Source: a candidate division WOR-3 bacterium (GTDB lineage Bacteria; Hydrothermota; Hydrothermia; JBDRYB01). From it: a stretch of DNA of 64,000 nucleotides. Positions 17,112 to 36,320 of the stretch are shown piece after piece. The notes under the pieces were generated by a model. It had not been told where the DNA came from and ran no database searches. It saw only the letters and a list, made by a program, of their open reading frames with translations. How positions within the stretch are numbered: the stretch's first letter is position 1; each line of letters opens with the position of its first letter. Where the stretch lies: positions 331,413-395,412 of the forward strand of contig JBDRYB010000001.1 of the NCBI GenBank assembly GCA_039803205.1. Direction: 5' to 3'. Both the position numbers and the translations under genes were made by a program.

Positions 17112-17113
17112 AT

Positions 17114-17164
17114 AAACCCCCGGCCAGACCGGGAGGTGCGAGGGTTTTATCCGGCCGGGTGGTT
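17114..17164 (-). terminator. Large-loop hairpin H1 (loop contains CACCTCCCG) downstream of propeller gene A
   Basis: Minus strand CCCGGCCGG-ataaaaccctcgCACCTCCCGgt-CTGGCCGGG followed by a T run. Confidence 0.75.
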
Positions 17165-17188
17165 ACTGGCACAATATGGTTCGCGTTT

Positions 17189-18763
17189 TTACTCAATCAC
17201 CTTGAGCACTTTTGTTCCTCCTTGATACTTCAGCACCGCAAAGCAAACGCCCTTGGTTAGCTCAAGGCCACCGCGCCCTGGGTTGAATGTGTGGGCCCCT
17301 TGGGTGAGAACGCCGTTATACAGGTTCTGGATGAGCCTGCCTGAGGCGTCGTATAGAGTGAGAGAGATATGGAAAGTTGCTGGCATGAAAAGATAGATGC
17401 CTTTGCCCCTCGGCTCTAGGAGAATCTTCTCCTTCATGATATCTTCTTCCTTTTCCCCTTCATATAAAGGGCTACAGCCTTGCGTATTATTAGGATCATC
17501 TATAGCGAAGATCCGGCTACTATCGGGCATCGCGTCCTGAAGACCAAAAACTATCTCAATGCATCCATCGAGATCTATATCAGCCGCAAAGGGCGAGTGG
17601 ACATCTGTCGAGAAGCCCCCCATGCTCCAGAGTATAGAACCATCCTCTCCGTTGACACATATGAGGGTATTTGTGGGTAGGTCGTCCTGCGAGAGCATGA
17701 TCTCCAATTTCCCGCCATCATTTCCGTCCACATCCACTATGGCTCCTTGGCAGTGTATCCCGGCGGGGAAACCTGTCTTGACCCATTTTTGGGTTCCATC
17801 TGTTCCTCTAAGGCAATAGAGACTCGGGGCCATGGTTCCTATTACCACCTCTATCTGGCCATCAGCGTCAAGGTCTGCTACCCCAGGGGAAGAGTATATT
17901 ATCGCGCCTCCTGTAGAAAAGCTCCACTTAGTTCCCCCATCCGTTCCCGCGAAACAATATATCACTCCGTTTGTGGAAGCCGCAATGACCTCAGCCTTTC
18001 CATCCTGGTCGCAATCATATATGACCGGATAATTCGGGAGATCCCCCATTAAGCTTCCTATTCTCCTAGCCCATTTACGAGTCCCGTTAGAGCCTTCCAG
18101 ACAATAGAGCGTGTCATTGGCGGCTATGACCACATCCAGGTCCAGGTCACCATCGCAATCAGCGACCGCGGGCCCTGCTCGACAATACATGATGGAGGAA
18201 TTGTTCCATATGGGGGTTCCGTTGAGTCCTGAGAGGCAATATACTCCGTTCATGTATGTGCCAAAGAAGACCTCAAGCACTCCGTCTCCATCCAGATCAG
18301 CGGCATTGGGTGAAGCCATTGTGCCTGGCGCAAAGGACCATTTCTCAGAGCCGTCAGAACCTCTGAGGCAATAGAGGTTTTCTCCATAGTCAGAAACGAT
18401 GATCTCAACAGCTCCATCATTATCCACATCAGCAACAACAGGAGTGGAACGCACACTTGAGATGAAGTCCCGTGTCCACTTGCGGGTGCCGTCCAGCCCG
18501 CTGAGACAATAGAGCTTCGCGCGACGGACGCTGGATCCATAGCTTCCCATGATAACCTCTGGATACGGATCCGCATCAACATTTGCGGAGCTTCCGTATT
18601 GCCACTCCACCATGCCCGCTGAGTCCGTTGGCGCACTCCACTGTATTACAGGGCTGGTAATGGCTCCTTTCATGAGCTGCTGCCCAGTATGAGCAGGATC
18701 GCCCGCCCACATGGTCCAGGTCTGATAGGCCTGGCCTACGAACATAGTAACTGCAATAAACAT
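17189..18763 (-). CDS. Secreted FG-GAP/PQQ-like beta-propeller protein A with T9SS-like C-terminal domain
   Basis: Repeats ADxDGDGxxEV...YCLxGxDGxxKW; C-terminal LYDASGRLIQNLY...GVCFAVL...KVIE; SD GGAGGTG. Confidence 0.85.
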   Translation of the reverse strand: MFIAVTMFVGQAYQTWTMWAGDPAHTGQQLMKGAITSPVIQWSAPTDSAGMVEWQYGSSANVDADPYPEVIMGSYGSSVRRAKLYCLSGLDGTRKWTRDFISSVRSTPVVADVDNDGAVEIIVSDYGENLYCLRGSDGSEKWSFAPGTMASPNAADLDGDGVLEVFFGTYMNGVYCLSGLNGTPIWNNSSIMYCRAGPAVADCDGDLDLDVVIAANDTLYCLEGSNGTRKWARRIGSLMGDLPNYPVIYDCDQDGKAEVIAASTNGVIYCFAGTDGGTKWSFSTGGAIIYSSPGVADLDADGQIEVVIGTMAPSLYCLRGTDGTQKWVKTGFPAGIHCQGAIVDVDGNDGGKLEIMLSQDDLPTNTLICVNGEDGSILWSMGGFSTDVHSPFAADIDLDGCIEIVFGLQDAMPDSSRIFAIDDPNNTQGCSPLYEGEKEEDIMKEKILLEPRGKGIYLFMPATFHISLTLYDASGRLIQNLYNGVLTQGAHTFNPGRGGLELTKGVCFAVLKYQGGTKVLKVIE

Positions 18764-18805
18764 CTCAACACCTCCAAGGTTATCTCGTTTCTGTTTCTGG
18801 CAGTA

Positions 18806-18839
18806 ATTATAACCGTGGATGTAATGCAGATGTAACGCA
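18806..18839 (-). promoter_or_regulatory. Promoter of propeller A: two 11-bp direct repeats, 6 bp, then TATAAT
   Basis: Minus strand TGCGTTACATC TGCATTACATC cacggt TATAAT. Confidence 0.7.
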
Positions 18840-18900
18840 AATTGCGTTGGTTCGTTGTCTTAACTTGATTTTGGCCATTTCTAACCCTTATAATTTTTCT

Positions 18901-20484
18901 ATGGGCGCAGACGAAATTGTAAGGGAAGCCATAATGAGGTTCCAGAAACTAGGTGCTTTGGAAAGATATATTGAGGAAATCAGGAAGGATAGTGGGATTC
19001 TTGCGGCACAAGTGGCTGAGGTTTATCTGGATACCGTAAGACATAGGCACGATATGGCTATTAGAAGAGGTAAAGCGCTCATTGCAAAGACCCATAATAG
19101 CCCGTGGGTGAGAGGGTATCTATTGATGCTACTAGGAGTGAACTACGGAAATATGGGAGAATTAGGCAAATCCGTCAATTGTTTTCAGCAGGCTCTGGGG
19201 ATCGCGGAATTCTTATTGGACCGCGATACCGCGCTCCAGGCCAAGGTTTATCTCGCGGCGAGCCATATTTTCAACTCCGAATACCGCGTTGCCTATAGGC
19301 TTCTTTCTTCTATCCTAAAGGATCTGCATAAGAGCTCCCCTCTATTTTACACTTGCTATTATTATTTTGGGATTTGTGCCCTAGCTACCGGAAACCTAGA
19401 AAAGGTAGCGAAGGCTTACGAGGTATATCTAGAAAGCCAAAAGGACAACATAAGAAGGGCTTACTTCCTGGAGATAATGGCTTTTGTTCTCAGAATAAGA
19501 GGGAAACTCGCTGAGGCCATGGAGACATTCGTTAATTCGGCAAAAGAGCATGTTGAACATGGTTCTGCCTACTCCGTGTATCCTATAGCCAAGGCCCTTG
19601 AGCTCTCCCGACTTGCTGGTTTTGAGCCTGTTCCCCGTGAGCTGTTAAAGAAGGCTCTAGATCTTGCCAGAAGGGGAGGTCTAGGCGAGCAGGCTGCGGC
19701 AGAGGAAATAGACGCGCTCCTCAAGGATGACGACTCCGAGGCCGCTGAGATGCTATACGATGCCGCGAATAACTATCTAAGAGCGCATCAGAACATAGAG
19801 GCCTTGTTTTCGGGCCTGACCGCGGCTTACCTGGCCTGGAAGACGGACAGCCCGGTATTCACTAAAGCCTTGAAGCTTATTGCCTCTCTCATTCCCCTGC
19901 ATCCGGGCTTAAGGAAAGACCCCCTCCTTGGGGATTTCATGTCCGAGGTGGAGCCATTTCTGAGAAAAGCCTTGAGACATGGCCAAGACAAAGATGGCAT
20001 AAAGGCGTATCTTATTGGCGAACTCAGGGTTATGGTAGATGGTAAAGAAGTAAATCTAAGGGGTTGGCGCAACAACAAGGCCATAAAGGGACTCATTTAT
20101 CTCCTCTTATCTTCAAAACACAGGATACCATCGGATCACCTTTTTTATCTGCTCTGGCCCAGGAGGGCATTAAACGAGAGGACGCGATATTACCTATATA
20201 ACGCAATAGCCGCCATAAGGAGAAACCTGGGCCGCCCCGAACTCCTCGTCAAAAAAAGAGACTTTTACCAGCTTGAAGGGGATGTCTGGACAGACTTGGG
20301 AGAACTGGAAAACCTCATAAGACTCGCTGACGCTACACGCGATCCTGCCGAGAGGGAGGAGTATCTCGCCAAAGCAAAAGAATTAGCAAGGGGCGATCTC
20401 CTTCCTGAATTCCCCTATGACAAACACATTGAGGAATACAGGTATTACTATGAGAGGATCAGGCAGAGGCTTGGCCTCCGATGA
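18901..20484 (+). CDS. TPR + SARP-family (wHTH, short BTAD) transcriptional regulator A
   Basis: Helical TPR-like N-terminus; IKAYLIGELRVMVDG...LFYLLWP...IRRNLG...VWTDLGELE...ARGDLLPE; TATAAT + 6 nt + ATG. Confidence 0.8.
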   Translation: MGADEIVREAIMRFQKLGALERYIEEIRKDSGILAAQVAEVYLDTVRHRHDMAIRRGKALIAKTHNSPWVRGYLLMLLGVNYGNMGELGKSVNCFQQALGIAEFLLDRDTALQAKVYLAASHIFNSEYRVAYRLLSSILKDLHKSSPLFYTCYYYFGICALATGNLEKVAKAYEVYLESQKDNIRRAYFLEIMAFVLRIRGKLAEAMETFVNSAKEHVEHGSAYSVYPIAKALELSRLAGFEPVPRELLKKALDLARRGGLGEQAAAEEIDALLKDDDSEAAEMLYDAANNYLRAHQNIEALFSGLTAAYLAWKTDSPVFTKALKLIASLIPLHPGLRKDPLLGDFMSEVEPFLRKALRHGQDKDGIKAYLIGELRVMVDGKEVNLRGWRNNKAIKGLIYLLLSSKHRIPSDHLFYLLWPRRALNERTRYYLYNAIAAIRRNLGRPELLVKKRDFYQLEGDVWTDLGELENLIRLADATRDPAEREEYLAKAKELARGDLLPEFPYDKHIEEYRYYYERIRQRLGLR

Positions 20485-20525
20485 TTTTGCCCCACCTTAA
20501 CGCGTAGCCTTAAAATTTTCAAACC

Positions 20526-21572
20526 TTGGGTATTCTCAGTCGGATTCGTTCCATTTTCAGGACGGAGGTCGCTCTGGATCTGGGGACAGCGCATACCCTC
20601 GTCTATGTAAAGGGGAAAGGCATAGTCATCCGGGAGCCATCGGTCGTCGCGGTTGACCTAACAACGGGAAAGCCAATAGCCATAGGCGCTGAGGCAAAAC
20701 TAATGCTCGGAAAGACCCACGAGACCATAATGGCGAAGCGGCCAATAAAGGATGGGGTCATAGAGAACCTCGATCTTGTGAACCTGATGATCTCCTCCCT
20801 CCTATCTAGAGTGATGAGGAACACGATCGCGAAACCCATACTCTATGTCGGGGTTCCCTCAGGCGCTAATGAGGTGGAGCTCAAGGCTGTCAGGGATGCT
20901 GGAGAGGCCGCTGGTGCGAGGGAGGTCTATCTGGTCGCTGAGCCGGTCGCGGCCGCTGTCGGAATGGACTTGCCGATCCACGACCCCACTGGGTACATGG
21001 TCGTTGATATTGGGGGAGGCACAACAGAAATAGCAGTTATATCCCTTGGTGGCATCGTAGCCCAGGCATCCATTCCCATAGCCGGGGACGAGATGGATCA
21101 GGCGATAATCAACTATATAAGGCGCAAATACACGATACTCATAGGCGAGCAGACAGCGGAGAAGATAAAGATAACCATAGGAAATGTTTATCCCACAGAG
21201 GAGGTGCTTGAGCCCATGGAGGTTCGGGGTCAGAGCCTCGTGAACAGCATGCCCCAGGTTGTTGAGATAACGCCCTCAGAGGTAAGAGAGGCCCTAAGGG
21301 AGCCGGTTTCCCAGATACTTGAGGCCATAAGAAGGGCATTTGAGGCCACGCCGCCGGATCTCATGGCGGACATAATAGAGCAAGGCATACACCTTACAGG
21401 CGGTGGCGCTCTCCTCAGGGGTATGGACCTCCTCATAAAAGAGGAGACCGGTCTTATGGTCAAGGTGGTCGAGAGGCCCCTTGAATGCGTGGCAATAGGG
21501 GTGGGAAAGATAATGGAGAATCCGAAAAAATACAGGAGCGTCATCCTCCCTTCCAGGAAACCAAGTAGATGA
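20526..21572 (+). CDS. mreB: Rod shape-determining protein MreB
   Basis: LDLGTA, VDIGGGTTE, LTGGGALL. Confidence 0.97.
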   Translation: MGILSRIRSIFRTEVALDLGTAHTLVYVKGKGIVIREPSVVAVDLTTGKPIAIGAEAKLMLGKTHETIMAKRPIKDGVIENLDLVNLMISSLLSRVMRNTIAKPILYVGVPSGANEVELKAVRDAGEAAGAREVYLVAEPVAAAVGMDLPIHDPTGYMVVDIGGGTTEIAVISLGGIVAQASIPIAGDEMDQAIINYIRRKYTILIGEQTAEKIKITIGNVYPTEEVLEPMEVRGQSLVNSMPQVVEITPSEVREALREPVSQILEAIRRAFEATPPDLMADIIEQGIHLTGGGALLRGMDLLIKEETGLMVKVVERPLECVAIGVGKIMENPKKYRSVILPSRKPSR

Positions 21573-21686
21573 AATGTTCCTACGATCTGCGAAGCACGGC
21601 TTTCGGTCTGAAGCCCGGAACCGGAGCGGTCCTTTGTTGTTGACCGCATCCATTCTGCCCCTTGAATTCACAACTGGCAAACGATC

Positions 21687-22385
21687 ATGAGGGACATTTA
21701 TCGCTTTCTCCTGGCCCTATTCGTGGCTGGGCTATTTCTGCTACCGTTTCCGCGCAAGCTAGTCCACAATACCTTGCTGGCAACGCTATATGTGCCTGTG
21801 CTACGGGCTGAGGCCTTTATATTGGACCTTTTTCACCTGAAGTCTGAGAGGGATTACCTTCTCGCCGAGAACGCTCGGCTTTCGGCAGAGCTGGGTAAGA
21901 GATACATTCTATCTGATGAAGGGGGCGATATAGCGAGGCCTCTTAGGTTTGATCCCCCTGACAATCCGGAGAGGATAATCGTGGATGCTGGAAGGAACAA
22001 GGGCCTAAAACCCGGGGATGTCCTAATGAGCGGTGGGGCTCTTGCTGGCAGGATCATCGCGGTTGAGGCCAACACATCCACACTCCTAACCCCGTTTTCT
22101 CCGGATTTTATGGCTGGCGTTCTGGACACCAGAACCATGATCCACGGTGTCCTCGTTGGGGGAACTAGCCCAAAGGTTGATTACATACCCAGCTGGGAGG
22201 ATGTGAAGGCTGGGGATACCCTCGTTACCTCTGGACTTGCTGGGTTTCTGCCCCCTGGCGTCTTGGTTGGGGTTGTTGAGAATGTCTACAGGACTGACAA
22301 ACCATTCCTTGAGGTCAGGGTAAAATTGTTTTATCAGCCGCAGAAGATCAGGGTCTTTACAATAGCCAGGGGAGGCTCGGGATGA
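21687..22385 (+). CDS. mreC: Rod shape-determining protein MreC
   Basis: AENARL coiled coil, GDTLVTSGL; synteny. Confidence 0.9.
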   Translation: MRDIYRFLLALFVAGLFLLPFPRKLVHNTLLATLYVPVLRAEAFILDLFHLKSERDYLLAENARLSAELGKRYILSDEGGDIARPLRFDPPDNPERIIVDAGRNKGLKPGDVLMSGGALAGRIIAVEANTSTLLTPFSPDFMAGVLDTRTMIHGVLVGGTSPKVDYIPSWEDVKAGDTLVTSGLAGFLPPGVLVGVVENVYRTDKPFLEVRVKLFYQPQKIRVFTIARGGSG

Positions 22386-22816
22386 GAGGGTGGCTCCTCT
22401 GGCTCTACGCGGGCCTTGCAGTCATGTTCGCTGTGATATTCACAAGGATAAGGTTTTCCGGTTTTCCGGAGGCCTCCGTGTCGCTTTTCGCGGCCGCATC
22501 AATGAGATCGCCCTACCCGTTTTCCCTGATCCTGGGCATCGTCCTTGGGCTCCTTACAGAGGGGCTTCATCCTTCGGAACCCTGGGTTACTCCCCTCCTT
22601 TACATCCTTCTTGCCAGCGCTAGCCGCTACGCGAGGGACCAGATGAACCTCCGGGGTTGGCTCCTCGGCCTCTATTTCCTTTTCTGGGGAATAGCCTTTA
22701 GGGTCCTCCCTCCCATTTTTCACGGACAGACAGCGGGCTTTCTTGATGCGGCAGTCGGTTCAGCTCTGACCGCTGTTCTCGCTTATCTCCTTTATCTGCC
22801 ATGGAAAGAAGAATGA
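22382..22816 (+). CDS. mreD: Probable MreD
   Basis: Hydrophobic 144-aa protein between mreC and mrdA. Confidence 0.7.
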   Translation: MRGWLLWLYAGLAVMFAVIFTRIRFSGFPEASVSLFAAASMRSPYPFSLILGIVLGLLTEGLHPSEPWVTPLLYILLASASRYARDQMNLRGWLLGLYFLFWGIAFRVLPPIFHGQTAGFLDAAVGSALTAVLAYLLYLPWKEE

Positions 22817-25670: not shown

Positions 25671-25741
25671 CGATCGCGGCGGTGAAAATGGGCGAATCGT
25701 TTTTGAAACCGGAGGACTTTGGCTCTTATAATATCCTTCTT

Positions 25742-25831
25742 GGAGAGGTGGCCGAGCGGTTGAAGGCGGCGGCTTGCTAAGCCGTTGTAGGGAGTATATC
25801 CCTACCGCGGGTTCGAATCCCGCCCTCTCCG
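25742..25831 (+). tRNA. tRNA-Ser(GCT)
   Basis: Cloverleaf with long variable arm; anticodon loop TTGCTAA; G discriminator; no CCA. Confidence 0.95.
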
Positions 25832-25866
25832 TTGAGAATCATCTACAGAATTACAAAAACACGAAA

Positions 25867-27432: not shown

Positions 27433-27481
27433 TCTGAAAGTCTAAAGATTTTAGCCGATCAAATTCAAGTCTTTCAAGCAC

Positions 27482-27526
27482 TTCCTCAGATATGCCTCAG
27501 ATATGTCTCAGATATGTTCTTAGACT
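27482..27526 (+). promoter_or_regulatory. Promoter of propeller B: three 11-bp direct repeats, 6 bp, then TAGACT
   Basis: TTCCTCAGATA TGCCTCAGATA TGTCTCAGATA tgttct TAGACT. Confidence 0.75.
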
Positions 27527-27564
27527 ATAGAGATGTTTATAAAGCCAGAAAGGAGTGTTTGGCC

Positions 27565-29091
27565 ATGTCTAGCTTGCTTATAGAAATCATGCTCGTAAGT
27601 CAGATCTATGGAAACTGGCCCATGTGGGGAGGCACGCCCACCCACGAATCCGTCCAGCTCATGAAAGGAGCCATAACAAGTCCTGTGATAAAGTGGAGGG
27701 TTGCAACTGAATACATGGTTGAATTGCAATTCTCAGCCATAGCTGATGTGGATGGCGATGGACATGTGGAGGTGGTGATAAGCTCTGGCGACGGGGCCTG
27801 TTGCCTCCGCGGCTCAGACGGAACCCAGAAGTGGGCTTTAACGATTGGTGGGTGGTCCTCTCCCGCGTTAGCTGATGTGGATGGCGATGGACAGATGGAG
27901 GTCGTGATAGGAAGTCTTGACAACAAGGTCTATTGCCTCCGCGGCTCAAACGGGACCCAAAAGTGGGCCTTCACGACGGGATACTCTGTGATTTCCTCCC
28001 CCGCAATAGCTGATTGCGATGGCGACGGCCAGATGGAGGTCGTGATAGGAAGTCTTGACAACAAGGTCTATTGCCTCCGGGGCTCAGACGGGACCCAGAA
28101 GTGGGCCTTCACGACGGGAGACTTAGTGTGGTCCTCCCCAGCCATAGCTGATGTGGATGGCGATGGACAGATGGAGGTCGTGATAGGAAGTCTTGACAAC
28201 AAGGTCTATTGCCTCCGGGGCTCAGACGGGACCCAGAAGTGGGCGTTCACGACATGGGACGATGTGCTGTCCTCTCCAGCCATAGCTGATGTGGATGGCG
28301 ATGGACAGATGGAGGTGGTTATAGGCTCATATGACCACAATGTCTATTGCCTCCGGGGCTCAGACGGGACCCAGAAGTGGGCCTTCACGACGGGAGACTT
28401 AGTGTGGTCCTCCCCAGCCATAGCTGATGTGGATGGCGATGGACAGATGGAGGTGGTTATAGGCTCAGATGATAAGAAGGTCTATTGCCTCCGTGGCTCA
28501 AACGGAACCCAGAAGTGGGCCGCGTCCTTCCCTTCTTCTGTTCACCTTCCCGGAGCGCTAGCGGATGTTGATGGTGATGGTAAGTTTGAGTTCCTGGTTT
28601 CGCAGCTGGGAGTTAAACCTAACATTGACAACCTCTATTGCCTGAACGCTGAGGATGGCTCTGTGGCCTGGAATATACCCCTGGCCTTTGATGTCCACTC
28701 TCCGTTTGCTGGGGACATAGACAGAGACGGGTGCATAGAGATAATCACGGGTACAAATGAGGCTGATGCCTCGGGTTACCGGATCTTCGCCTTAGATGAC
28801 CCTGCCAACGCTACGGGCTGTGGCCCTGTATATGAGGACATAGAGGAGGATCACGGCTCTGGTCCCATTGATTTCAGATCCATTGATCAGGGCCTTTACC
28901 TTTTCATGCCCTGTGAGGCCCAGGTTTCCCTCTCCCTCTACGACGCTCAGGGCAGGCTCGTTCAGAACCTTTATGAAGGCCTCCTGAGCCCCGGCGGCCA
29001 CACCTTCATCCCAAAAACAGAAACAAAGGGCGTTTATCTCGCGGTTCTAAGGTATCAGGGAGGAATCCAGACTGTAAAGCTCATAAGATAA
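27565..29091 (+). CDS. Secreted FG-GAP/PQQ-like beta-propeller protein B with T9SS-like C-terminal domain
   Basis: Near-identical 46-aa repeats; SD AAGGAG before ATG 27565. Confidence 0.85.
   Translation: MSSLLIEIMLVSQIYGNWPMWGGTPTHESVQLMKGAITSPVIKWRVATEYMVELQFSAIADVDGDGHVEVVISSGDGACCLRGSDGTQKWALTIGGWSSPALADVDGDGQMEVVIGSLDNKVYCLRGSNGTQKWAFTTGYSVISSPAIADCDGDGQMEVVIGSLDNKVYCLRGSDGTQKWAFTTGDLVWSSPAIADVDGDGQMEVVIGSLDNKVYCLRGSDGTQKWAFTTWDDVLSSPAIADVDGDGQMEVVIGSYDHNVYCLRGSDGTQKWAFTTGDLVWSSPAIADVDGDGQMEVVIGSDDKKVYCLRGSNGTQKWAASFPSSVHLPGALADVDGDGKFEFLVSQLGVKPNIDNLYCLNAEDGSVAWNIPLAFDVHSPFAGDIDRDGCIEIITGTNEADASGYRIFALDDPANATGCGPVYEDIEEDHGSGPIDFRSIDQGLYLFMPCEAQVSLSLYDAQGRLVQNLYEGLLSPGGHTFIPKTETKGVYLAVLRYQGGIQTVKLIR
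27741..28560 (+). repeat. Intragenic tandem repeat, about 6 units, 138-bp period
   Basis: agctgat...gatgg anchor at 27741, 27870, 28008, 28146, 28284, 28422. Confidence 0.9.
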
Positions 29092-29095
29092 TCCT

Positions 29096-29145
29096 AAAAG
29101 CCCCGGCTTACATTCTGCACCTCCCGTTCCTGGCCGGGGCTTTTT
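29096..29145 (+). terminator. Large-loop hairpin H2 (CACCTCCCG loop), likely bidirectional terminator
   Basis: AAAAGCCCCGGCT-tacattctgCACCTCCCGttcct-GGCCGGGGCTTTTT. Confidence 0.8.
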
Positions 29146-29157
29146 ATATGCCCTTCT

Positions 29158-31011
29158 TTATTTGCCCTGGAATCGCGGCGGCCACCCCAATCTTGATTCC
29201 ATCTTCAGCTCATTCTTGAACTGCTCCGTAAAATCTTCGTAAAGCTTCTTGGCCCTTTCTGGCATTTTAAGCCGAATTAGGGCTTTCATGGCCATCTCGC
29301 AAGCATCCTCAGAAAAAGGCCTGATAGAAAGCGCTCTTTCGGCAAACCTCAGAGCCTGCTCTGGTTCCTCATCAAGCGAGTATTCGGCCATTCTGGTATA
29401 AACGAGACTGGTAAGTTCCCTCACCTCATCCCTAATATCCTCCAGGAAACCCGGCCTCCAACCCTCCAAAAAATCTCCCCTTATCAGGCTAAGGGCTTTC
29501 TCGTAAATAGGCCTTGCCTCGCTGGTAGGGGCCGAAGCCTCTACTGCCTTGGCCGTGTTCACGAGGTTTCTGAGTTCATCAAGGTCTGTCCGTATTTCAC
29601 AGCCTATCCACGCGCTGGTATGGGATTTATGAGGCTTTATAGCTACGCCCTGGTTCCTGAGGATGGCCCTGGCAAGAGCCGTGAACTTGTAGTAGTTCCT
29701 TCTCGCCCTTTCCAAAGGAAGGCGTGGCCAGAACTCCTGTATGATCCTCTCCCTTGTCAACTCGCCTTTGGCATGAAGGGCAAAGAAAACGAGAACCTCG
29801 CCTGGTCTCCCCTTCTCAAGATGAAAGCGTCCGCGAGGGGTCTCAATCGCGGGTTGTCCCATAACCAAAAGCTTCATCCTGGCCTGTTTGGAACGAGGGC
29901 TCAGCTTCTCAGCTATTTCTCTCAATTCCATTTTATCCGGGAAAACCGAAAGAGCTAGCATGAAGGGTGTAGGCACGGCGTGGGCTATGTAGGAGATGTA
30001 ACCCCAAAGTTCGTGTTCTTTTGTTAGGTTCATCAATGTTTTAATATCCTCCAGGGAATCGCTTTCCAGACCTAATTTGTTCTTGACCGCTATCTTTGCC
30101 CATTTGGCCCAAAGCATGGCCACCCCAAAACCACGGGTCCTCGCCTCAGCTTCTATCTCTTCTATCCTCATCAACGAATCGCCGTTTTGAGGCAAAACAG
30201 ACTCTTTTATAGCCTTTATCTCAAGCGTTGTTTTTAGTCTTCCTACCCTCGCGGCCGAGTTCTCCCCGAGCTCCAGATATAGATTTGCTCTATCAATGTC
30301 CCCCTCAGTTGCGAAGACGATCCCGAGGGACGCAAGGCAGGTAGAAAGCTCCATGGCGGCACCGTGGGCCTTCCTAACCTCCTCTAATGCTTGATTGATG
30401 TGTCGCTTAGCCCTTTCGTATTCGCCCATGCAGATATAACAGAATCCGAGGATATCGTTTTTCACGGCCTCAATCGGAGGAGTATCCTTGGGGCTGTTCG
30501 TGATGAGCTCCACGGTTTCGCGAAAACGCCCTGTCCCGGCCAGCGCCTCTGCCTTCAAGAGCATAGCTGTGGGATCCGTCAGCTTTAGCCCCTCAAGCAG
30601 TTCCAGGGAGTACTCCGGCTCCCCGCGGACCAGGGCCAAGCGCGCCTTGCTCACAAGAGCCACATCTCTCCACTCCATATCCTCAATCTCTTTCACTAAT
30701 CTGGACGCCTCTTTCAGCCTCCCTTGTTCAAGGAGTATCTCTATGTAACCCCGAAGGAACCAAACATATGGCGTTATATCCCCCTTCTTTATGGAAGCAC
30801 TCTTGAGCTTCTGGATGCCCCTCTTGAGAACCTCGGATTCTCCTATTGGGGCGAAGATGTGGGACATGAATATTAAGGCCTGAGCCGCTCCACGCGGGTC
30901 ATCTTCCCCCAGGCAATCGTTAAAGAGGCTTGCGGCAAAGGAGAGAGCTTCATCCGTTTCGCCCCCTTTCCAGAGGAGCCTAAACTTCTGGGCTTTTTGT
31001 CTGTCTAACAT
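29158..31011 (-). CDS. TPR + SARP-family regulator C with full BTAD
   Basis: LLVMGQPAI...TRERIIQEFWP...TDLDEL...ALSLIRGDFLEG...ALSIRPFSEDACEMAMKA; start reassigned to ATG 31011 (TATAAT + 6 nt). Confidence 0.8.
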   Translation of the reverse strand: MLDRQKAQKFRLLWKGGETDEALSFAASLFNDCLGEDDPRGAAQALIFMSHIFAPIGESEVLKRGIQKLKSASIKKGDITPYVWFLRGYIEILLEQGRLKEASRLVKEIEDMEWRDVALVSKARLALVRGEPEYSLELLEGLKLTDPTAMLLKAEALAGTGRFRETVELITNSPKDTPPIEAVKNDILGFCYICMGEYERAKRHINQALEEVRKAHGAAMELSTCLASLGIVFATEGDIDRANLYLELGENSAARVGRLKTTLEIKAIKESVLPQNGDSLMRIEEIEAEARTRGFGVAMLWAKWAKIAVKNKLGLESDSLEDIKTLMNLTKEHELWGYISYIAHAVPTPFMLALSVFPDKMELREIAEKLSPRSKQARMKLLVMGQPAIETPRGRFHLEKGRPGEVLVFFALHAKGELTRERIIQEFWPRLPLERARRNYYKFTALARAILRNQGVAIKPHKSHTSAWIGCEIRTDLDELRNLVNTAKAVEASAPTSEARPIYEKALSLIRGDFLEGWRPGFLEDIRDEVRELTSLVYTRMAEYSLDEEPEQALRFAERALSIRPFSEDACEMAMKALIRLKMPERAKKLYEDFTEQFKNELKMESRLGWPPRFQGK

Positions 31012-31039
31012 GCTTAAATTATAGAGCTCCCGGGTTTCG

Positions 31040-31080
31040 GGAAACATTTCTGGAAAGCTTCCATTACAAAATTTAGACCT
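31040..31080 (+). promoter_or_regulatory. Promoter of propeller C (motif shared with 34263-34304)
   Basis: GGAAACATTTctGGAAAGCTTCCATTaCAAAATTTA. Confidence 0.65.
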
Positions 31081-31100
31081 TGCTCATGTGAGGTGATAAC

Positions 31101-32645
31101 ATGATAAACGCACATATAATCGTAACGGCCTTGATGGGCCAGGTCCTTGGAATCTGGCCCATGTGGGGCGGAGAACCTACCCATAGGTCCGTCCAGCTCA
31201 TGAGGGGAGCCATAACAACCCCCGTGATAAAGTGGGGATTCGGCGCATCCAGCTATGTTGAACGCCAGTTTGCCGCTGTGGCCGATGCAGACGGTGATGG
31301 GCATGCTGATGTTGTTTTTGGTTCAAGGGACGGTAAGGTCTACTGTCTCAGAGGCACTAACGGAACAAAGATATGGGACTTCCAAACCGGAAATCAGATT
31401 GTAGGGGTCGTCGCTTCACCAACAGTAGCTGATGTAGATGGAGATGGTGCTAAAGAGGTTGTCGTTGGCTCTGCGGATAGCTATTTCTACTGCATTAGAG
31501 GAAGTGATGGCGTAACAAAATGGATGTTTCAGGTAACCCCGAATAACTATGTTCTGAGCTCGGCGGCTGTGGTTGACCTCGATAGCGATGGGCATATGGA
31601 GGTTATTTTCGGAAGCAACGACACGAGGGTTTACTGTCTGAACGGCACTGATGGCACCATCAAGTGGACATTTACCACTGGAAATTGGGTCCAGTCCTGT
31701 CCTGCCGTGGCCGACTGCGATGGGGATGGTTCCCTAGAGGTGGTCATAGGCTCCTATGACCACAAGGTCTATTGCCTTGCTGGCTCAGACGGAACCCAGA
31801 AGTGGGCATTTACAACAGGAGGCACAGTGTTCTCATCTCCAGCAATAGCTGATGTTGATGGCGATGGGGCTCTTGAGGTCGTGATAGGTAGTTGGGATCA
31901 AAAAATCTACTGCCTGCGCGGATCAGACGGCACCCAAAAATGGGCCTATACAACCCTGGCTTCAGTGAGCGCCTCCCCTTCCCTGGGAGATGTTGATGCT
32001 GATGGGAAATTAGAGGTATTGATAGGTTCAGAGGACCTCAGGGTCTACTGCCTCAGGGGAAGCGATGGCTCTGCGAAATGGATACGCACCATGCCGGGCA
32101 GAGTTTTACATCCAGGCGCTCTGGTTGATCTTGATGGGGACAACAAGCTTGAATACCTCGTATCCCAGCGGTATCAACATCCTGATACCCTCTTTTGTCT
32201 TAACGCTGAGGATGGCTCGATGGTTTGGAAGATAGCCTTAGCTTATTGGATCAACGGGCCTTTTGCCGCTGATGTTGATGATGATAGCTGCATTGAGTTA
32301 GTTGTGGGAACCTACTATTCAACGAATCTGCCTTCTGAGTTGACCGTGATAGATGATCCCTATGACAGCACGAACTGTGGACAGGTTACTGGCCTTGATG
32401 AGAGCGGTTTTGACAAGGGTTTTGAATTCAGGCCGATCGGCAAAAGCCTGTATCTCTTCAACTCATCCCCAATCCAGGTTCAGTTGGAGATATACGATCC
32501 CTCAGGCAGGCTCGTCCAAGGGCTTTACAACGGGCTCCTCCTACCAGGCGCCCACACCTTTTCCCCAATCCTAAGGACAGGTGGTATTTATCTGGCCGTG
32601 CTCAGGCACACCGGGGGCACGAAAACCATTAAGGTGGTAAGATGA
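31101..32645 (+). CDS. Secreted FG-GAP/PQQ-like beta-propeller protein C with T9SS-like C-terminal domain
   Basis: Same repeats and C-terminal domain as A and B; SD GAGGTG. Confidence 0.85.
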   Translation: MINAHIIVTALMGQVLGIWPMWGGEPTHRSVQLMRGAITTPVIKWGFGASSYVERQFAAVADADGDGHADVVFGSRDGKVYCLRGTNGTKIWDFQTGNQIVGVVASPTVADVDGDGAKEVVVGSADSYFYCIRGSDGVTKWMFQVTPNNYVLSSAAVVDLDSDGHMEVIFGSNDTRVYCLNGTDGTIKWTFTTGNWVQSCPAVADCDGDGSLEVVIGSYDHKVYCLAGSDGTQKWAFTTGGTVFSSPAIADVDGDGALEVVIGSWDQKIYCLRGSDGTQKWAYTTLASVSASPSLGDVDADGKLEVLIGSEDLRVYCLRGSDGSAKWIRTMPGRVLHPGALVDLDGDNKLEYLVSQRYQHPDTLFCLNAEDGSMVWKIALAYWINGPFAADVDDDSCIELVVGTYYSTNLPSELTVIDDPYDSTNCGQVTGLDESGFDKGFEFRPIGKSLYLFNSSPIQVQLEIYDPSGRLVQGLYNGLLLPGAHTFSPILRTGGIYLAVLRHTGGTKTIKVVR

Positions 32646-32653
32646 AGGAACCG

Positions 32654-32700
32654 GGCCGGCCGTGGAAACCTTGCACCTCCCGTATAAGCCGCGGCCGGCC
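32654..32700 (+). ncRNA. Large-loop hairpin H3 (CACCTCCCG loop), no adjacent U-tract
   Basis: GGCCGGCCGTGG-aaaccttgCACCTCCCGtataag-CCGCGGCCGGCC. Confidence 0.65.
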
Positions 32701-32727
32701 ACGCTTTCCTTTCAGAAGGCCTTTCCC

Positions 32728-34263
32728 ATGACTTGCCTACCCGGACCTGTTTTTCTTTTAAATATGGTTCTGTGGGCCAAGGCCTTCGGCGGTTCCGGAG
32801 GAGAAAGTGCCTTCTCGTCGGCCCTAATCTCAAACGGGAAAATCCTCATCGCCGGATCAACCACCAGCTTTGGGCTCAACTACCCTGATTTTCTCTTAAT
32901 CATGCTTCAGCCTGATGGCTCTGTTTCCTGGGCAAAGACCTACGCGGGGAGCATGTATGATTACCCATATTCCGTGATCCCAAACCCATACTCCGGTGGT
33001 TTCACTATAGCGGGCTGTATGAATTTCCGAGGGAGGGGATATGACGACATTTGCGTTATGGATCTCTTACCTGATGGATCTGTCAATTGGGAAAGGGTAT
33101 TCTGGGGCTCAGATCACGATGTGGCTCGTGCCGTGGTTCGGTCCGCTGATGGAGGGTTCCTGATCGGCGGAATGACCAGAAATTTCCTCGCGAGGAGCTA
33201 TGACCTGGTTATATTGAAACTCTCATCTGATGCCCAACTCCTATGGAGCAGAATACTCCGCGGGATTGGGTTTAGCGATGACCGCATATATTCCCTCATT
33301 CCAACATCTGACAGTGGGGTCATTGCAGTGGGGTGGGGTTCCAACGGTGCGGTCGGCGGATATGACATTATCGTATTGAAGATCGCGCAGAATGGCTCCA
33401 TGGTGTGGGGAAAGTATATAGGAACCCCTGGGTTTGACTACGGGTGGTCTGGCGTAAAAACCGACGATGGTGGCTTGATGCTCCTTGCTTCAACCGACGG
33501 TTCCGGGGCTGGGGGCACGGATATCTTGATCCTGAAGCTCTCCCCTGATGGTTCTCCTGAATGGGCCAAGACAATTGGGGGTCCAGCAAACGATTACGGT
33601 TGGAGTATGATCCGGACCAACGACAGCGGATACGCCATTATTGGCCAGACCGAGAGTTTTGGGGCCGGAGGCGCTGATCTTTTTCTGCTTAAGCTGGGGC
33701 CGGATCTTTCTTTGGCTTGGGCCAGCACCTACGGCACTTCAAGGAGAGATGTTGGGAGCTCTCTTGTCCAGCTTCCTGACGAGAGCCTAGTGCTTTTCGC
33801 TACTACAGACATAGGAAACTACAACCATGATTATCTGGTAATGAGGGTTGAGCCGTCAGGAGGCTATCCAGGGTGTCTAAGCCCCTGCACTCCTACCACA
33901 TCTTATGCGAGCCTGGGCGTGTCGCCAATTTCGCCAGATAGCCTTCAGAGCTTCACCCCCAATGTCCTGGATACTCTGCCAGCAGTAACAGATCAAAACC
34001 CCTCGGTTACCAATGTCTGCGAGCCAGTTTATGAGGAAATCAATGAGACTCAAAGTGATCCGGGAATCCCAATGGTGTGCCTTTCGTTGTCAGGAGGGAT
34101 CCTCATAAGATCATACCTTGAGACTGATATAAGTATTTATTCCTCTGATGGCAGACTGAGCTACTCAGGGAACCTCAAAAAAGGCGAAAGCCGAATCTCG
34201 CTCGGAAAAGGCGTTTATTTCTGGAGAGCAGGGGTTTACAGGGGTAAGGCTGTTGTATGGTAG
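32728..34263 (+). CDS. Secreted beta-propeller repeat protein (WxKTYGG...DGG...G.T.SFGAG type) with T9SS-like C-terminal domain
   Basis: Repeats such as WAKTIGGPANDYGWSMIRTNDSGYAIIGQTESFGAG; C-terminal IYSSDGRL...GVYFW...KAVVW; start uncertain. Confidence 0.75.
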   Translation: MTCLPGPVFLLNMVLWAKAFGGSGGESAFSSALISNGKILIAGSTTSFGLNYPDFLLIMLQPDGSVSWAKTYAGSMYDYPYSVIPNPYSGGFTIAGCMNFRGRGYDDICVMDLLPDGSVNWERVFWGSDHDVARAVVRSADGGFLIGGMTRNFLARSYDLVILKLSSDAQLLWSRILRGIGFSDDRIYSLIPTSDSGVIAVGWGSNGAVGGYDIIVLKIAQNGSMVWGKYIGTPGFDYGWSGVKTDDGGLMLLASTDGSGAGGTDILILKLSPDGSPEWAKTIGGPANDYGWSMIRTNDSGYAIIGQTESFGAGGADLFLLKLGPDLSLAWASTYGTSRRDVGSSLVQLPDESLVLFATTDIGNYNHDYLVMRVEPSGGYPGCLSPCTPTTSYASLGVSPISPDSLQSFTPNVLDTLPAVTDQNPSVTNVCEPVYEEINETQSDPGIPMVCLSLSGGILIRSYLETDISIYSSDGRLSYSGNLKKGESRISLGKGVYFWRAGVYRGKAVVW

Positions 34264-34304
34264 GAAACATTTTGGGGAACATTCCATTTTAAAATTTAAA
34301 ACCT
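34263..34304 (+). promoter_or_regulatory. Promoter of propeller D (copy of the C promoter motif)
   Basis: GGAAACATTTtgGGGAACATTCCATTtTAAAATTTA. Confidence 0.65.
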
Positions 34305-34322
34305 AAGACTGGAGGCATTGAC

Positions 34323-35828
34323 ATGATGAATATACATCTCATAACTAATCTGTTGGTCTGCCAGGCCCCTGGGACATGGCCCATGTGGGGTTACAACCCA
34401 GCGCACTGGGCAGTTCAACCGGTGCCCGGCGCGCACGCAACAGCTCCTGTTGTTAAGTGGATTATCTCAGTAGGGAATCAGATTCAGTGGCTTTTTTCTG
34501 CTACCAGTGATGTTGACCAGGACGGCCTGAATGAGGTTCTGGCTGGTTCTTTTTCCGGAAATTTTTACTGCCTGAACGGAACGACCGGAGCACAGAAATG
34601 GATCTTCAACGCTGGATCTGTTGTAGAATCGTGTCCCGCTGTCGCGGACATGGCCGGAGATGGTTCAGTGGAGGTAGTCTTCGGCACTTGGGGCGGAAAA
34701 GTCTATTGCCTCAGGGGCACGGATGGCACCAAGAAATGGGAATACACCACCTCTTATCAGTTCCACCACGGCCCAGTTGTGGTTGATTGCGACGGGGATG
34801 GCGATCTAGATGTGGTAATAGGGAATACGGTGGGAAGTGTATATTGCTTTGATGGTGAAACAGGTGGGCTTATATGGAATACTTTCCTCCTCTACAACAG
34901 CTATCTAGAGAACTCTTCACCCGCGGCCGGGGACATAGATGGGGACGGCCAGATAGAGGTAGTAATAGGTACCGCCCAGGGCATCTATTCCCTGAATGCC
35001 TCAACCGGAGCCGTAGAGTGGTTATCATCCAAAGGCGATTGCGGCAACTCTTCCCCTGGATTAGCTGACTGCGATGGGGATGGCGCTATTGAGGTGGTGA
35101 TAGGTTCTGCGGACTACAATATCTACTGCCTTAATGGTCAAACCGGAGCCGAGGAGTGGAGGTATACTACCGGAGGAATTGTTTGGTCTTCTCCGGTAAT
35201 TCTTGATGCTGACGGAGATGGGCTTCTTGAGATAATAATAGGGAGCTTTGACGGCTACGCTTACTGTCTGAGCGGGGAATCCGGAACCCTCCAGTGGAGA
35301 ACGCAGGTCGGTGAAATCCGCGTGGGCATCCCTGCTGGGGATGTGGACGGCGACAACAAATACGAGGTAATTATAGGAAATAACAGCGGATACACATGTC
35401 TCAACGCTGAGAACGGTTCTGTTCTCTGGACATCAGCACCATCTAGTGGGGGAAGGAGTATCTATCTCGCTGATGCGGATATGGACGGCTGTGTTGAGAT
35501 CGTAGGCGGGTCAACGGGCTACAACATATATGTGCTCGATGATCCCGGAAACTCATCAGGCTGCATGAGCGTGGGAGAACATGAAGGGCCTGGAGGGTAT
35601 TCCCTTGAGTTCAGGCCATTGTCTTGTGGCCTTTACCTTTTCCTGCCGAGCCATGTGCAGGTTTCCCTCTCCCTCTACGACGCTCAGGGCAGGCTCGTTC
35701 AGAACCTTTATGAAGGCCTCCTGAGCCCCGGCGGCCACACCTTCATCCCGAAAGCAGAGGGGAAGAGCGTTTATTTAGCGGTTCTAAGGTATCCCGGAGG
35801 GATAAAAACCGCCAAAATGATCAGATAA
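34323..35828 (+). CDS. Secreted FG-GAP/PQQ-like beta-propeller protein D with T9SS-like C-terminal domain
   Basis: Same architecture as A-C; SD GGAGG. Confidence 0.85.
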   Translation: MMNIHLITNLLVCQAPGTWPMWGYNPAHWAVQPVPGAHATAPVVKWIISVGNQIQWLFSATSDVDQDGLNEVLAGSFSGNFYCLNGTTGAQKWIFNAGSVVESCPAVADMAGDGSVEVVFGTWGGKVYCLRGTDGTKKWEYTTSYQFHHGPVVVDCDGDGDLDVVIGNTVGSVYCFDGETGGLIWNTFLLYNSYLENSSPAAGDIDGDGQIEVVIGTAQGIYSLNASTGAVEWLSSKGDCGNSSPGLADCDGDGAIEVVIGSADYNIYCLNGQTGAEEWRYTTGGIVWSSPVILDADGDGLLEIIIGSFDGYAYCLSGESGTLQWRTQVGEIRVGIPAGDVDGDNKYEVIIGNNSGYTCLNAENGSVLWTSAPSSGGRSIYLADADMDGCVEIVGGSTGYNIYVLDDPGNSSGCMSVGEHEGPGGYSLEFRPLSCGLYLFLPSHVQVSLSLYDAQGRLVQNLYEGLLSPGGHTFIPKAEGKSVYLAVLRYPGGIKTAKMIR

Positions 35829-35835
35829 TCTTCCT

Positions 35836-35884
35836 AACCCCGGCCGGCGAAAACCCTACACCTCCCGAGCTGGCCGGGGTTTTT
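35836..35884 (+). terminator. Large-loop hairpin H4 (CACCTCCCG loop)
   Basis: AACCCCGGCCGGC-gaaaacccta CACCTCCCG a-GCTGGCCGGGGTTTT. Confidence 0.8.
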
Positions 35885-36320
35885 ATTTCCCCTCGTATCC
35901 CGCTATCTTTCTCAACCGCCTCTCGTGCCTTCCTCCCTCAAACGGGGTGTCAAGAAAAACCCTGACCATCTCCTGAGCCTCGGCAGGCGGGGTTTCCCCC
36001 GAAAGGGTCATCACATTAGCGTTATTGTGCCGCCTGCACATCTCCGCGTCCCTAACCGAACAGCATCTCGCGGCTATAACGCCCTTGACCTTGTTCGCGG
36101 CTATTGACATGCCTATCCCGGTTCCACAGATCAGAATGCCCCTCTCGCACCTACCAGAAGCAACGGCCTCTGAGGCGTCTATGGCGGGATCTGGATAATC
36201 CGAGGGTTCTGAATCCGGAGCGCCGAAGTCAACCGGGTCATGGCCGAGCTCGTCCAGGAATGCCTTTATCCTCTCCTTCAGAAAGAATCCCCTGTGATCA
36301 GCCCCGAGAGCGACCCTCAT
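35883..36320 (-). CDS. rpiB: Ribose-5-phosphate isomerase B
   Basis: GADHRG, ICGTGIGMSIAANK, FEGGRH. Confidence 0.97.
   Translation of the reverse strand: MRVALGADHRGFFLKERIKAFLDELGHDPVDFGAPDSEPSDYPDPAIDASEAVASGRCERGILICGTGIGMSIAANKVKGVIAARCCSVRDAEMCRRHNNANVMTLSGETPPAEAQEMVRVFLDTPFEGGRHERRLRKIAGYEGK

Follow-up and report, generated by a model that had tools for sequence, protein, structure and literature searches.

Among described systems, the SARP activators (AfsR, ActII-ORF4, DnrI, EmbR) consist of an OmpR-type winged helix followed by BTAD helices and, according to the parts of PMC11301090 and PMC10972967 that deal with their operators, bind heptamers 11 bp apart, the last of which lies 8 bp before the -10 hexamer and takes the place of the -35 element. 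Genes and operators of this kind occur in a 64,000-nt stretch of DNA (hereafter the window, G000:C1:331413-395412) of a candidate division WOR-3 bacterium, whose genome (G000) measures 2.3 Mb and is 95.9% complete. Here each of three leaderless regulator genes (A, B and C), coding for a TPR domain followed by a SARP unit, lies back to back with a gene for a predicted secreted beta-propeller; direct repeats lie between the two genes and a hairpin behind the propeller gene. We call such a unit a module. The sequencing runs that contain the window DNA are hot-spring metagenomes, and the NCBI entries of close regulator homologues are named 'candidate division WOR-3 bacterium'. For comparison we used two sister genomes of the same genus (G001 and G002), 38 other genomes of the class, and individual loci designated by L numbers (e.g. 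L019, L045); 61 metagenome loci were added to the regulator set.

We think it likely that these modules form a genus-wide set of private, ligand-licensed TPR-SARP activators of adjacent secreted-protein operons. That the regulators are private activators of the adjacent operons is, taken by itself, highly probable. At the level of sequence, the operator geometry, the private heptamers, their co-variation with the regulators, the secretion tails and the gain or loss of whole modules are plain features of the loci, and the system is a real, lineage-specific one within one WOR-3 genus. In the mechanism that we propose, the leaderless regulators would be made steadily from their own complete promoters, and a regulator would bind the adjacent heptamer pair head to tail, 8 bases upstream of a -10 hexamer that has no -35 element. 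The bound regulator would recruit RNA polymerase as AfsR does, and would thereby turn on an operon whose products are, by prediction, exported through type IX secretion (the T9SS). An intracellular ligand held in the TPR groove likely licenses activation. The 3' hairpin likely ends or punctuates the transcript; its loop might also pair with the Shine-Dalgarno (SD) sites of SD-led messages and damp their translation, which is the weakest step of the scheme.

A literature search, with supplements and most subscription journals outside its scope, returned no published description of a TPR-SARP/T9SS-cargo system, no account of SARP control of T9SS cargo and no paper combining WOR-3 with type IX secretion. 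In the main text of the WOR-3 genome survey PMC12542636, a term search for SARP, T9SS and 'secret' gave zero occurrences.

Regulators and their operators

The preliminary description of this DNA had listed three divergent regulator/propeller pairs, whose reading frames and coordinates stand as they were given (Table 1). It had also read every regulator as a TPR-like domain followed by a SARP-type winged helix and BTAD. The AlphaFold2 model of regulator B (pLDDT 91.9) has this order, with helical repeats in residues 1-350, a loose linker, a winged helix at 361-457 and helices at 458-518, but the BTAD of the A/B type stops after three helices, about 60 alignment columns of the full-length relative being missing, and only regulator C has a full one. 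In comparisons with VIA-align, residues 356-521 of B matched EmbR (Z 16.4, rmsd 2.8, 159 residues aligned) and the C-terminal part matched residues 23-186 of AfsR (Z 15.8 and 15.6); taken over the EmbR and AfsR matches together, the rmsd was 2.6-3.0 and 156-162 residues were covered. The fold of regulator A was assigned through its homology to B (47% identity). Searches of Pfam and NCBIfam with A or B, either whole or as the C-terminal part, gave no SARP match (BTAD, Trans_reg_C); the assignment was decided by the fold comparison. The A/B-type regulators have no AAA or nucleotide-binding domain: residues 1-350 of the model are all helical repeats, and there was no AAA match. In A, B and C alike the SARP unit is C-terminal. 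In the structural account of PMC11301090 the BTAD of AfsR comprises seven helices, of which helix 6 contacts the beta flap and the later ones contact sigma region 4 and form the dimer interface. By analogy, the three-helix BTAD of the WOR-3 proteins would keep the beta-flap contact and lose the remaining AfsR-type contacts.

The assumption of a single paralogous regulator family is correct for A and B, but C belongs to a separate lineage. Its BTAD matches PF03704 with 43.6 bits (positions 1-133 of 146) and AfsR at 80-274 (E 0.004), it aligns to the A/B family only across the SARP part, and it has four other homologues and an orthologue in G001 (68%). Besides C, the source genome codes for 19 regulators like A and B (520-530 aa, 36-62% identity) and one full-BTAD relative of 609 aa. 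Matches to regulator B number 21 in G000, 16 in G001 and 5 in G002; among the 38 other genomes of the class, nine gave only weak partial TPR matches. A profile search found 84 proteins at 460 bits or more, the next scores being 254 and then 87 bits, and 46 relatives were found at 1e-30 among the 1.84 billion representatives of a 50%-cluster library. The next kin are full-BTAD forms of 580-610 aa and AAA-TPR_MalT-winged helix-BTAD proteins of about 1050 aa (seen among 10 of 150 matches scanned), and we infer that the TPR-SARP regulators descend from MalT-like STAND forms by domain loss. Scans of genome contigs confirmed no relative among 163 and 153 pattern matches, near genomes possibly lying outside the scanned set. 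Two regulator remnants were seen in G000 (C3:70314-70454 and C29:20479-20727), the one on C3 divergent from a boxed propeller array with three hairpins.

The direct repeats noticed earlier in the propeller promoters are indeed present in excess over chance. The cargo promoters follow the pattern heptamer-4-heptamer-8-TAnnnT (the box), and each module has its own heptamer; the pattern searched for operator A occurs a single time in the G000 genome. A match of at least 8 of 9 letters at period 11 was found in 24 of 33 spacers between regulator and cargo, as compared with 0-1 of 33 at periods 8-10 and 12-14 and with 0.9% of shuffles. This corresponds to the AfsR promoter treated in PMC11301090, where the B site lies 8 bp upstream of the -10, and to the SARP heptamer geometry as summarised in PMC10972967. 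The C and D boxes are of the type GGRAACA with a period of 12; a third copy stands before two tailed genes (genes for proteins with a T9SS-like tail) on contig C6, and the period-12 C-type box is kept in G001 (L111).

A TTG at -35 is present in 60 of 80 regulator promoters and in none of 49 cargo promoters, so the latter should need an activator. The regulators of the family start 5-8 nt behind their own -10, and A, B and C, which the preliminary description had called leaderless, start 6-8 nt behind a TAnnnT hexamer and have no SD. Leaderless starts are not special to regulators: by gene starts called heuristically throughout the genome, which were also used for counting operon heads, they were found in 396 of 1702 other G000 genes and in 67 of 1074 shadow reading frames. 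Tailed cargo genes are mostly SD-led (161/229). It could be argued that the regulators are repressors, which use the repeats to block the cargo promoter or their own promoter. Such a role would suit a shortened BTAD without the helices by which AfsR contacts sigma region 4 and alpha-CTD (structural part of PMC11301090), and a SARP repressor is among the proteins listed in PMC10972967. We regard it as highly improbable, since none of the cargo promoters has the -35 TTG, the 8-nt spacing to the -10 recurs family-wide, and no part of the regulator family is more conserved than the shortened BTAD (mean entropy 1.16 bits).

Counted over the genome, 17 of the 19 A/B-like regulators face a boxed promoter, which extends the pairing seen in the window. 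One of the two exceptions has its box directly downstream, the other has TGTCAGA upstream of itself and of three distant tailed genes. The latter belongs to a conserved lineage (L045:619-2196, minus strand; L003, L016, L074, L079, L085) that stands in tandem behind another regulator and has TGTCAGA repeats in its own promoter as well as, in G000, in front of the three distant genes; it likely acts in trans and regulates itself. Of 181 tailed operon heads, 25 have a box in front of them, as against 10 of 1084 other heads, and five of those ten are module genes. The formula of one propeller for each sensor was too narrow, because the operons contain one to several genes and boxes recur at distant promoters.

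As judged from the alignments, the letters of the heptamers co-vary with the DNA-reading residues of the regulators and not with the TPR part. Starting from 83 regulator 5' ends, 58 had a box and the whole helix; dereplication left 51, of which 49 were of the short type, in 39 lineages. In the box set one doubtful row was dropped, one was placed by hand and three were re-registered by hand. Over the 39 lineages, box distance correlated with distance in the recognition helix (Mantel r 0.234, p 0.001; partial on TPR 0.225, p 0.0007), and correlated neither with the TPR (r 0.069, p 0.20) nor with the rest of the SARP part (r -0.09, p 0.85). The best of 2611 column-base tests (z 11.5) joined heptamer position 2 to residue 385, which lies at the beginning of helix 1 of the winged helix: lineages with Arg385 have G2 in 10/10 cases, while G in both halves occurs in 0/29 others (residue-base table 10-0-0-29), and on the TPR tree this residue changes seven times. 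At helix position -3, Lys or Arg goes with G4 in 6/6 cases (table 6-0-3-30) and Glu with C4 of the distal half in 8/8 (8-0-6-25); Asp at helix position +4 goes with A6 in 4/4 (4-0-0-35). These residue-base pairings are the chemically usual ones. Four regulators outside the fit (L034, L045:619, L021 and L019) all obey the rule for residue 385, and the +4 rule holds as well for L021, which is related to a fitted row.

It must be noted that several points speak against such a code. The rules were chosen post hoc from the 2611 tests, among which a TPR column came second (z 10.3), and L019 violates the Glu/C4 rule. Restricted to the 17 rows of G000, the Mantel signal was borderline (r 0.18, p 0.053), and before the boxes had been brought into register p was 0.24 for 14 rows and 0.026 for 21 rows. 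Independent pairs on well-supported branches number one to four, none of them contrary, and are too few for a test.

The TPR part, residues 1-340 of regulator B, matches Rap-peptide complexes, MalT domain III, NprR, AimR and APC/C TPR subunits (Z 18-23, rmsd 4.5-5.7); generic TPR proteins score as high as Rap or NprR, thus the matches indicate likeness of fold only. In the groove, whose positions were derived from the TPR register and not from model coordinates, the N-terminal repeats are highly variable and the C-terminal ones nearly invariant and charged (in 71 sequences, E187 is kept in 70, R194 in 71, K227 in 69, Y288 in 70 and E296 in 71). The 12 variable groove positions have an identity of 0.71 within lineages (15 pairs), compared to 0.54 for 66 other variable positions; this excess was reached in 0 of 20000 resamplings and comes near the DNA-reading positions (0.73-0.93). 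Such a lineage-specific pattern carries, on the evidence of the alignments, the signature of specificity residues. If the regulators are private activators, we find it fairly likely that they are under ligand control. Two observations weigh on the other side: groove positions taken from the register may be conserved for folding, and cargo families swap within one regulator lineage, which is a poor fit to a ligand tied to one cargo.

The groove might be thought to read imported peptide pheromones as RRNPP receptors do, which would turn the modules into a diderm's set of parallel quorum-sensing channels. The top structural matches include Rap-Phr, NprR and AimR, and a groove with one fixed, charged end and one variable end would suit a peptide, but MalT domain III scores as high as Rap (Z 22.7). 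An OppA-type binding protein (PF00496) was not found in the 95.9% complete G000, with the control positive in 11 of 14 genomes, and an SD-led reading frame of 15-80 aa within 300 nt downstream, the only arrangement searched for, accompanies only 4 of 66 regulators, the four having nothing in common. An imported peptide signal is disfavoured by the lack of an OppA match and of a conserved peptide gene, and we consider pheromone sensing very unlikely. An intracellular metabolite, a sugar or a piece of protein is more likely to be the ligand of these regulators.

Secreted cargo and turnover of modules

Table 1. Features of the module region (window coordinates)
Feature	Position	Strand	Description
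3' hairpin A	17113..17162	-	GC stem, anti-SD-like loop GCACCUCCC, U-rich tail; likely terminator
Propeller A, 524 aa	17189..18763	-	Short hydrophobic N-terminus; FG-GAP/PQQ-type; T9SS-like tail 17.6 bits (under cut-off)
Operator and -10 of propeller A	18806..18837	-	CGTTACA-4-CATTACA-8-TATAAT
Regulator A, 527 aa	18901..20484	+	Leaderless; TPR superhelix, SARP winged helix, three-helix BTAD
tRNA-Ser(GCT)	25741..25832	+	In the strain without B, module B is bordered on the left by the 3' end of the tRNA
Regulator B, 521 aa	25867..27432	-	Leaderless; TPR 1-350, winged helix 361-457, three BTAD helices 458-518
Operator and -10 of propeller B	27484..27526	+	Three 11-bp repeats (heptamer YCTCAGA), 8 nt, TAGACT
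Propeller B, 508 aa	27565..29091	+	FG-GAP/PQQ-type; near-identical internal 138-nt repeats; T9SS tail 28.7 bits (over cut-off)
3' hairpin B	29093..29150	+	Anti-SD-like loop; between convergent propeller B and regulator C
Regulator C, 617 aa	29158..31011	-	Leaderless; TPR, winged helix, full BTAD (PF03704 5e-11); separate lineage
C-type operator and -10 of propeller C	31040..31072	+	GGAAACA / GGAAAGC, period 12
Propeller C, 514 aa	31101..32645	+	8-bladed, eight DxDxD loops; T9SS tail 24.6 bits (over cut-off)
3' hairpin C	32651..32706	+	Operon-internal type, without U tract
Gene E, ~511 aa	32728..34263	+	Second secreted propeller family (delta-60/SBBP-like); T9SS-like tail
Second C-type operator and -10	34263..34295	+	GGAAACA / GGGAACA, period 12; before propeller D
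Propeller D, ~500 aa	34323..35828	+	FG-GAP/PQQ-type; T9SS-like tail 18.1 bits (under cut-off)
3' hairpin D	35833..35887	+	Anti-SD-like loop and U tract

The module region contains a fifth secreted gene, gene E, which lies between propellers C and D and was left out of the preliminary description; it is likely co-transcribed with propeller C, and its family has 62 BLAST matches in G000. Propeller D, formerly thought to share the promoter of C, has a copy of the C box of its own. T9SS-like tails had been ascribed to all propellers; when the tails were scanned alone with TIGR04183 (cut-off 23 bits), those of B and C scored over the cut-off, but those of A and D stayed under it.

All four propellers have FG-GAP_3 and PQQ-type matches. 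The AlphaFold2 model of propeller C (pLDDT 85.3) is 8-bladed, with eight DxDxD loops and a beta-rich tail; its best matches were the designed protein Cake8 (TM 0.92 of target), BamB and YxaL, the natural ones being 8-bladed propellers of the BamB/YxaL type. Variation among 28 propeller paralogues clusters in two loops per blade, often aromatic, and in the model these two loops suit a binding face. The cargo is likely made up of calcium-stabilised cell-surface binding proteins; a lectin or adhesin role is putative. The 138-nt blade repeats of propeller B (window 27852-28541) share 78-88% DNA identity, a sign of recent blade duplication or homogenisation.

In the 17 divergent cases of G000 the first cargo gene belongs to the FG-GAP family in eight, to the E type in six (one of them behind a decayed first gene), to a third tailed family in two, and in one case codes for an untailed 139-aa protein. 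This cytoplasmic-looking protein (L037:4302-4718, minus strand; L081, L086) has no Pfam match and its gene is followed by an anti-SD hairpin; it is Roadblock/LC7-like by eye only. One-to-one co-evolution of regulator and propeller was considered and rejected: cargo family tracks the regulator tree only weakly (17 changes vs. 20.1 after shuffling, 48 rows, p 0.04); for the operator core the figures were 29 and 39.3. Regulator and box travel together, and cargo is exchanged.

With respect to the export machinery, SprA (1883 aa, C15:31399-36753) and PorV (C26:21591-22268) scored over their cut-offs in G000. It counts against the proposed export route that the PorU-like gene (C1:282568-285753; 257.8 and 84.5 bits) stayed under the NCBIfam cut-off of 420. 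Searches for GldM and GldN were blank in G000 and equally silent in the controls, hence uninformative. TIGR04183 has at least 125 matches in G000 (150 of 187 candidates scored), and our own tail profile found 229 tailed genes, which means about 230 tailed proteins among about 1950 genes. The N-termini of the tailed proteins are very short and hydrophobic, with Lys or Arg in residues 2-6 in 30/161 and Gln at position 8-18 in 76/161, the N-terminal Gln being what we take to be a Bacteroidota-like trait. Their sequences suggest minimal signal peptides. A secreted-looking protein of 361 aa, with a TSP3-like motif (PF18884, E 0.011) and a divergent tail, is also encoded in the window (12778-13863, minus strand), and neither a regulator nor a box adjoins its gene.

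Modules A and B differ between strains. The four runs belong to one study, the strain in X3 and X4 is about 99% alike, and it is for these two modules that strain variation is known. Contigs from X3 and X4 pass over A (17137 joined to 20459) and B (25832 joined to 29176), with 28 and 29 other letters, respectively, at the joints; these short replacement stretches had no match over 14-16 nt in the genome or the loci. On its short side the A joint is supported by 238 letters in X3, the other three joints by 30, which is at the limit of caution. Read depth was 0-0.9 in the middle of B, compared to 7-9 in the flanks, and fell by only about half over A, so the population is mixed. The A joint lies inside the loop of hairpin A (17137). 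Since half of this hairpin and the final codons of regulator A are still in place, module A was likely lost by deletion in the X3/X4 strain; module B may have been either gained or lost. At slot A of G001 stands a related regulator whose box (CTTTAAA) is a different one and whose cargo is of the E type; behind rodA, both the tRNA-Ser and B are missing from the two sister genomes.

It is possible that the regulators are private-box activators without specific sensing, the TPR serving as a scaffold or dimeriser that replaces the lost BTAD helices and the modules forming a repertoire of surface proteins that is gained and lost, with the output of a strain set by the modules in it. The absence of A and B from the X3 and X4 contigs, the other box and cargo family at slot A of G001, the frequent cargo swaps and the strong conservation of the C-terminal TPR half are in line with such a role, as is the location of the AfsR dimer interface in the missing helices (structure described in PMC11301090). 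Three considerations make it rather unlikely: the groove positions are lineage-specific and kept within lineages, a constitutive activator for every operon would give no gain over a plain -35, and the full-BTAD relatives carry the TPR too. We prefer activators that sense a ligand.

The genes between modules A and B are, judged from their translations, of the housekeeping kind (mreBCD, mrdA, rodA-like), together with the tRNA-Ser. Labels given by eye from translations identify, further along the window, a DNA adenine methyltransferase next to an EcoRV-like endonuclease in a low-GC patch (38126-39987), a Dam-like methyltransferase (41138-41968) and a further methyltransferase-like gene (62472-63707).

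The hairpin behind the cargo genes

The 3' element that had been noticed behind the propellers is present behind all four of them (folding z -1.6 to -4.1). In G000 it stands behind 26 of the 229 tailed genes and behind none of the 1723 others; with three further copies included, 27 of 65 tailed genes in boxed operons (a list drawn by hand) have it, as compared with 2 of 164 outside, both near contig ends. It is a single hairpin, 4-35 nt behind the stop codon. With a covariance model, the members of the genus gave 34, 14 and 8 matches, and outside it 2 of the 38 genomes had one weak match. The model retained five pairs, the two stem types being misaligned in it, and pairs were counted instead on a stem-anchored register, in which the core pairs hold in 50-51 of 51 copies, with changes on both sides, in a set chosen for having stems. 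The GC stem is followed by a U tract in A, B and D, and operon-internal copies such as C are without it. Rfam gave no hairpin match in the window, only tRNAs, and a loose descriptor returned 148 matches, mostly chance. Two other interpretations were tried and rejected: an antisense peptide gene starting in the loop (its ATG is missing or immediately stopped in A, B and D) and an integron attC or REP element (the core motifs were not seen). In G001 the gene convergent to the orthologue of regulator C is a different one, and between the two lies a hairpin whose loop is of the same anti-SD type (L110:1260-1330).

The core of the loop is identical to the 16S tail CACCUCC, found on contig C10. Immediately in front of it 25 of 26 copies have a G, where 16S has U, and a pyrimidine follows GGAGGUG in 33 of 45 tailed genes vs. 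8 of 47 others (p 7e-8), which suits the loop G. The calculated pairing averages -12 to -14 kcal/mol with any strong SD and about -8 with regulator or leaderless starts. As a point against action on particular messages, pairing with the gene's own start or the next one was no better than with others (p 0.31 and 0.85), and a preference of this kind was dropped as an explanation. We incline to the view that the anti-SD loop is functional; action on SD sites is, from the base pairing, a possibility on which we are somewhat doubtful.

The hairpin may instead be a plain terminator or processing stem that travelled along with gene ends as these were duplicated and homogenised, its loop motif being a passenger. 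The stems resemble the common tetraloop terminators of G000, propellers B and D are 84% identical over their last 217 nt, and no preferred target of the loop was found. Yet when large-loop GC hairpins were collected without selection for the motif, it was present in 26 of the 29 behind tailed genes and in 0 of the 11 behind others; the two-sided stem changes described above and the retention of the hairpin in both sister genomes likewise speak against a passenger. We see the passenger explanation as a serious possibility, though not a probable one, and keep to a loop with a role of its own.

Taken together, about 20 one-component sensors with their own grooves and DNA addresses, activation by a minimal BTAD, cross-damping through anti-SD loops and retuning between strains could amount to an inversion-free switchboard for the cell surface. 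We regard the conjunction of all these parts as unlikely. Were it true, the anti-SD loop of the active operon, tuned to other secreted-protein starts, would damp rival cargo while the leaderless regulators escape, so that at any moment the surface would be dominated by one protein or a few, and the set would be readjusted from strain to strain as modules are acquired, lost and rewired.

Comparison with known systems

It is interesting to compare the hairpin with known RNAs. The Cuckoo/CcsR RNAs, as presented in the part of PMC4615179 devoted to them, have an unpaired anti-SD-like motif in the loop and variable stems, and in the icaR 3' UTR a motif pairs with the SD (relevant part of PMC3868564). 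Cuckoo/CcsR RNAs consist of two to four adjacent hairpins with the loop CCUCCUCCC, in contrast to the single hairpin with the motif GCACCUCCC found here, which moreover has no Rfam match and shows no preference for its own SD. These operons would be tied to an undescribed anti-SD hairpin.

The cargo resembles T9SS type A cargo of Bacteroidota in the TIGR04183 sorting domain and in the presence of SprA, PorV and a PorU-like gene, but the host lies outside Bacteroidota. The findings point to how a small-genome member of a little-known phylum may control and vary its secreted coat.

As for the regulators, their nearest longer relatives in the 50%-cluster library are the MalT-like STAND proteins, which have the same domain order from the TPR on; the proteins described here differ by having no nucleotide-binding domain, by the shortened BTAD and by their lineage-specific expansion. 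RRNPP receptors (Rap, NprR, AimR, ComR) have an N-terminal helix-turn-helix. They share with our regulators a TPR superhelix of similar size and a groove that looks specificity-bearing, and the occurrence of several paralogues per genome (PMC7206700). The regulators differ in that their DNA-binding unit is a C-terminal SARP and that neither an adjacent peptide gene nor an OppA was found.

Two points are named as open in the corresponding parts of a 2024 review (PMC10972967): how small SARPs recruit polymerase and how SARPs read sequence. The WOR-3 family amounts to a natural library of about 40 regulator-operator lineages with four candidate residue-base rules and a three-helix BTAD, in which both questions could be addressed by single swaps, and it would supply many compact, mutually orthogonal activator-promoter pairs. 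In the small, medium and large SARP classes as defined in PMC10972967 the SARP unit is N-terminal, whereas here it stands C-terminal behind a TPR and there is no ATPase. Unlike in the known SARP activators, 19 of 21 copies keep only three of the seven BTAD helices, about 20 paralogues occur together, each with another heptamer, the targets are secreted proteins instead of antibiotic clusters, and the host is a WOR-3 bacterium. The proposed activation is SARP-like, yet by domain order and, for A and B, by the length of the BTAD, these regulators stand outside the SARP family.

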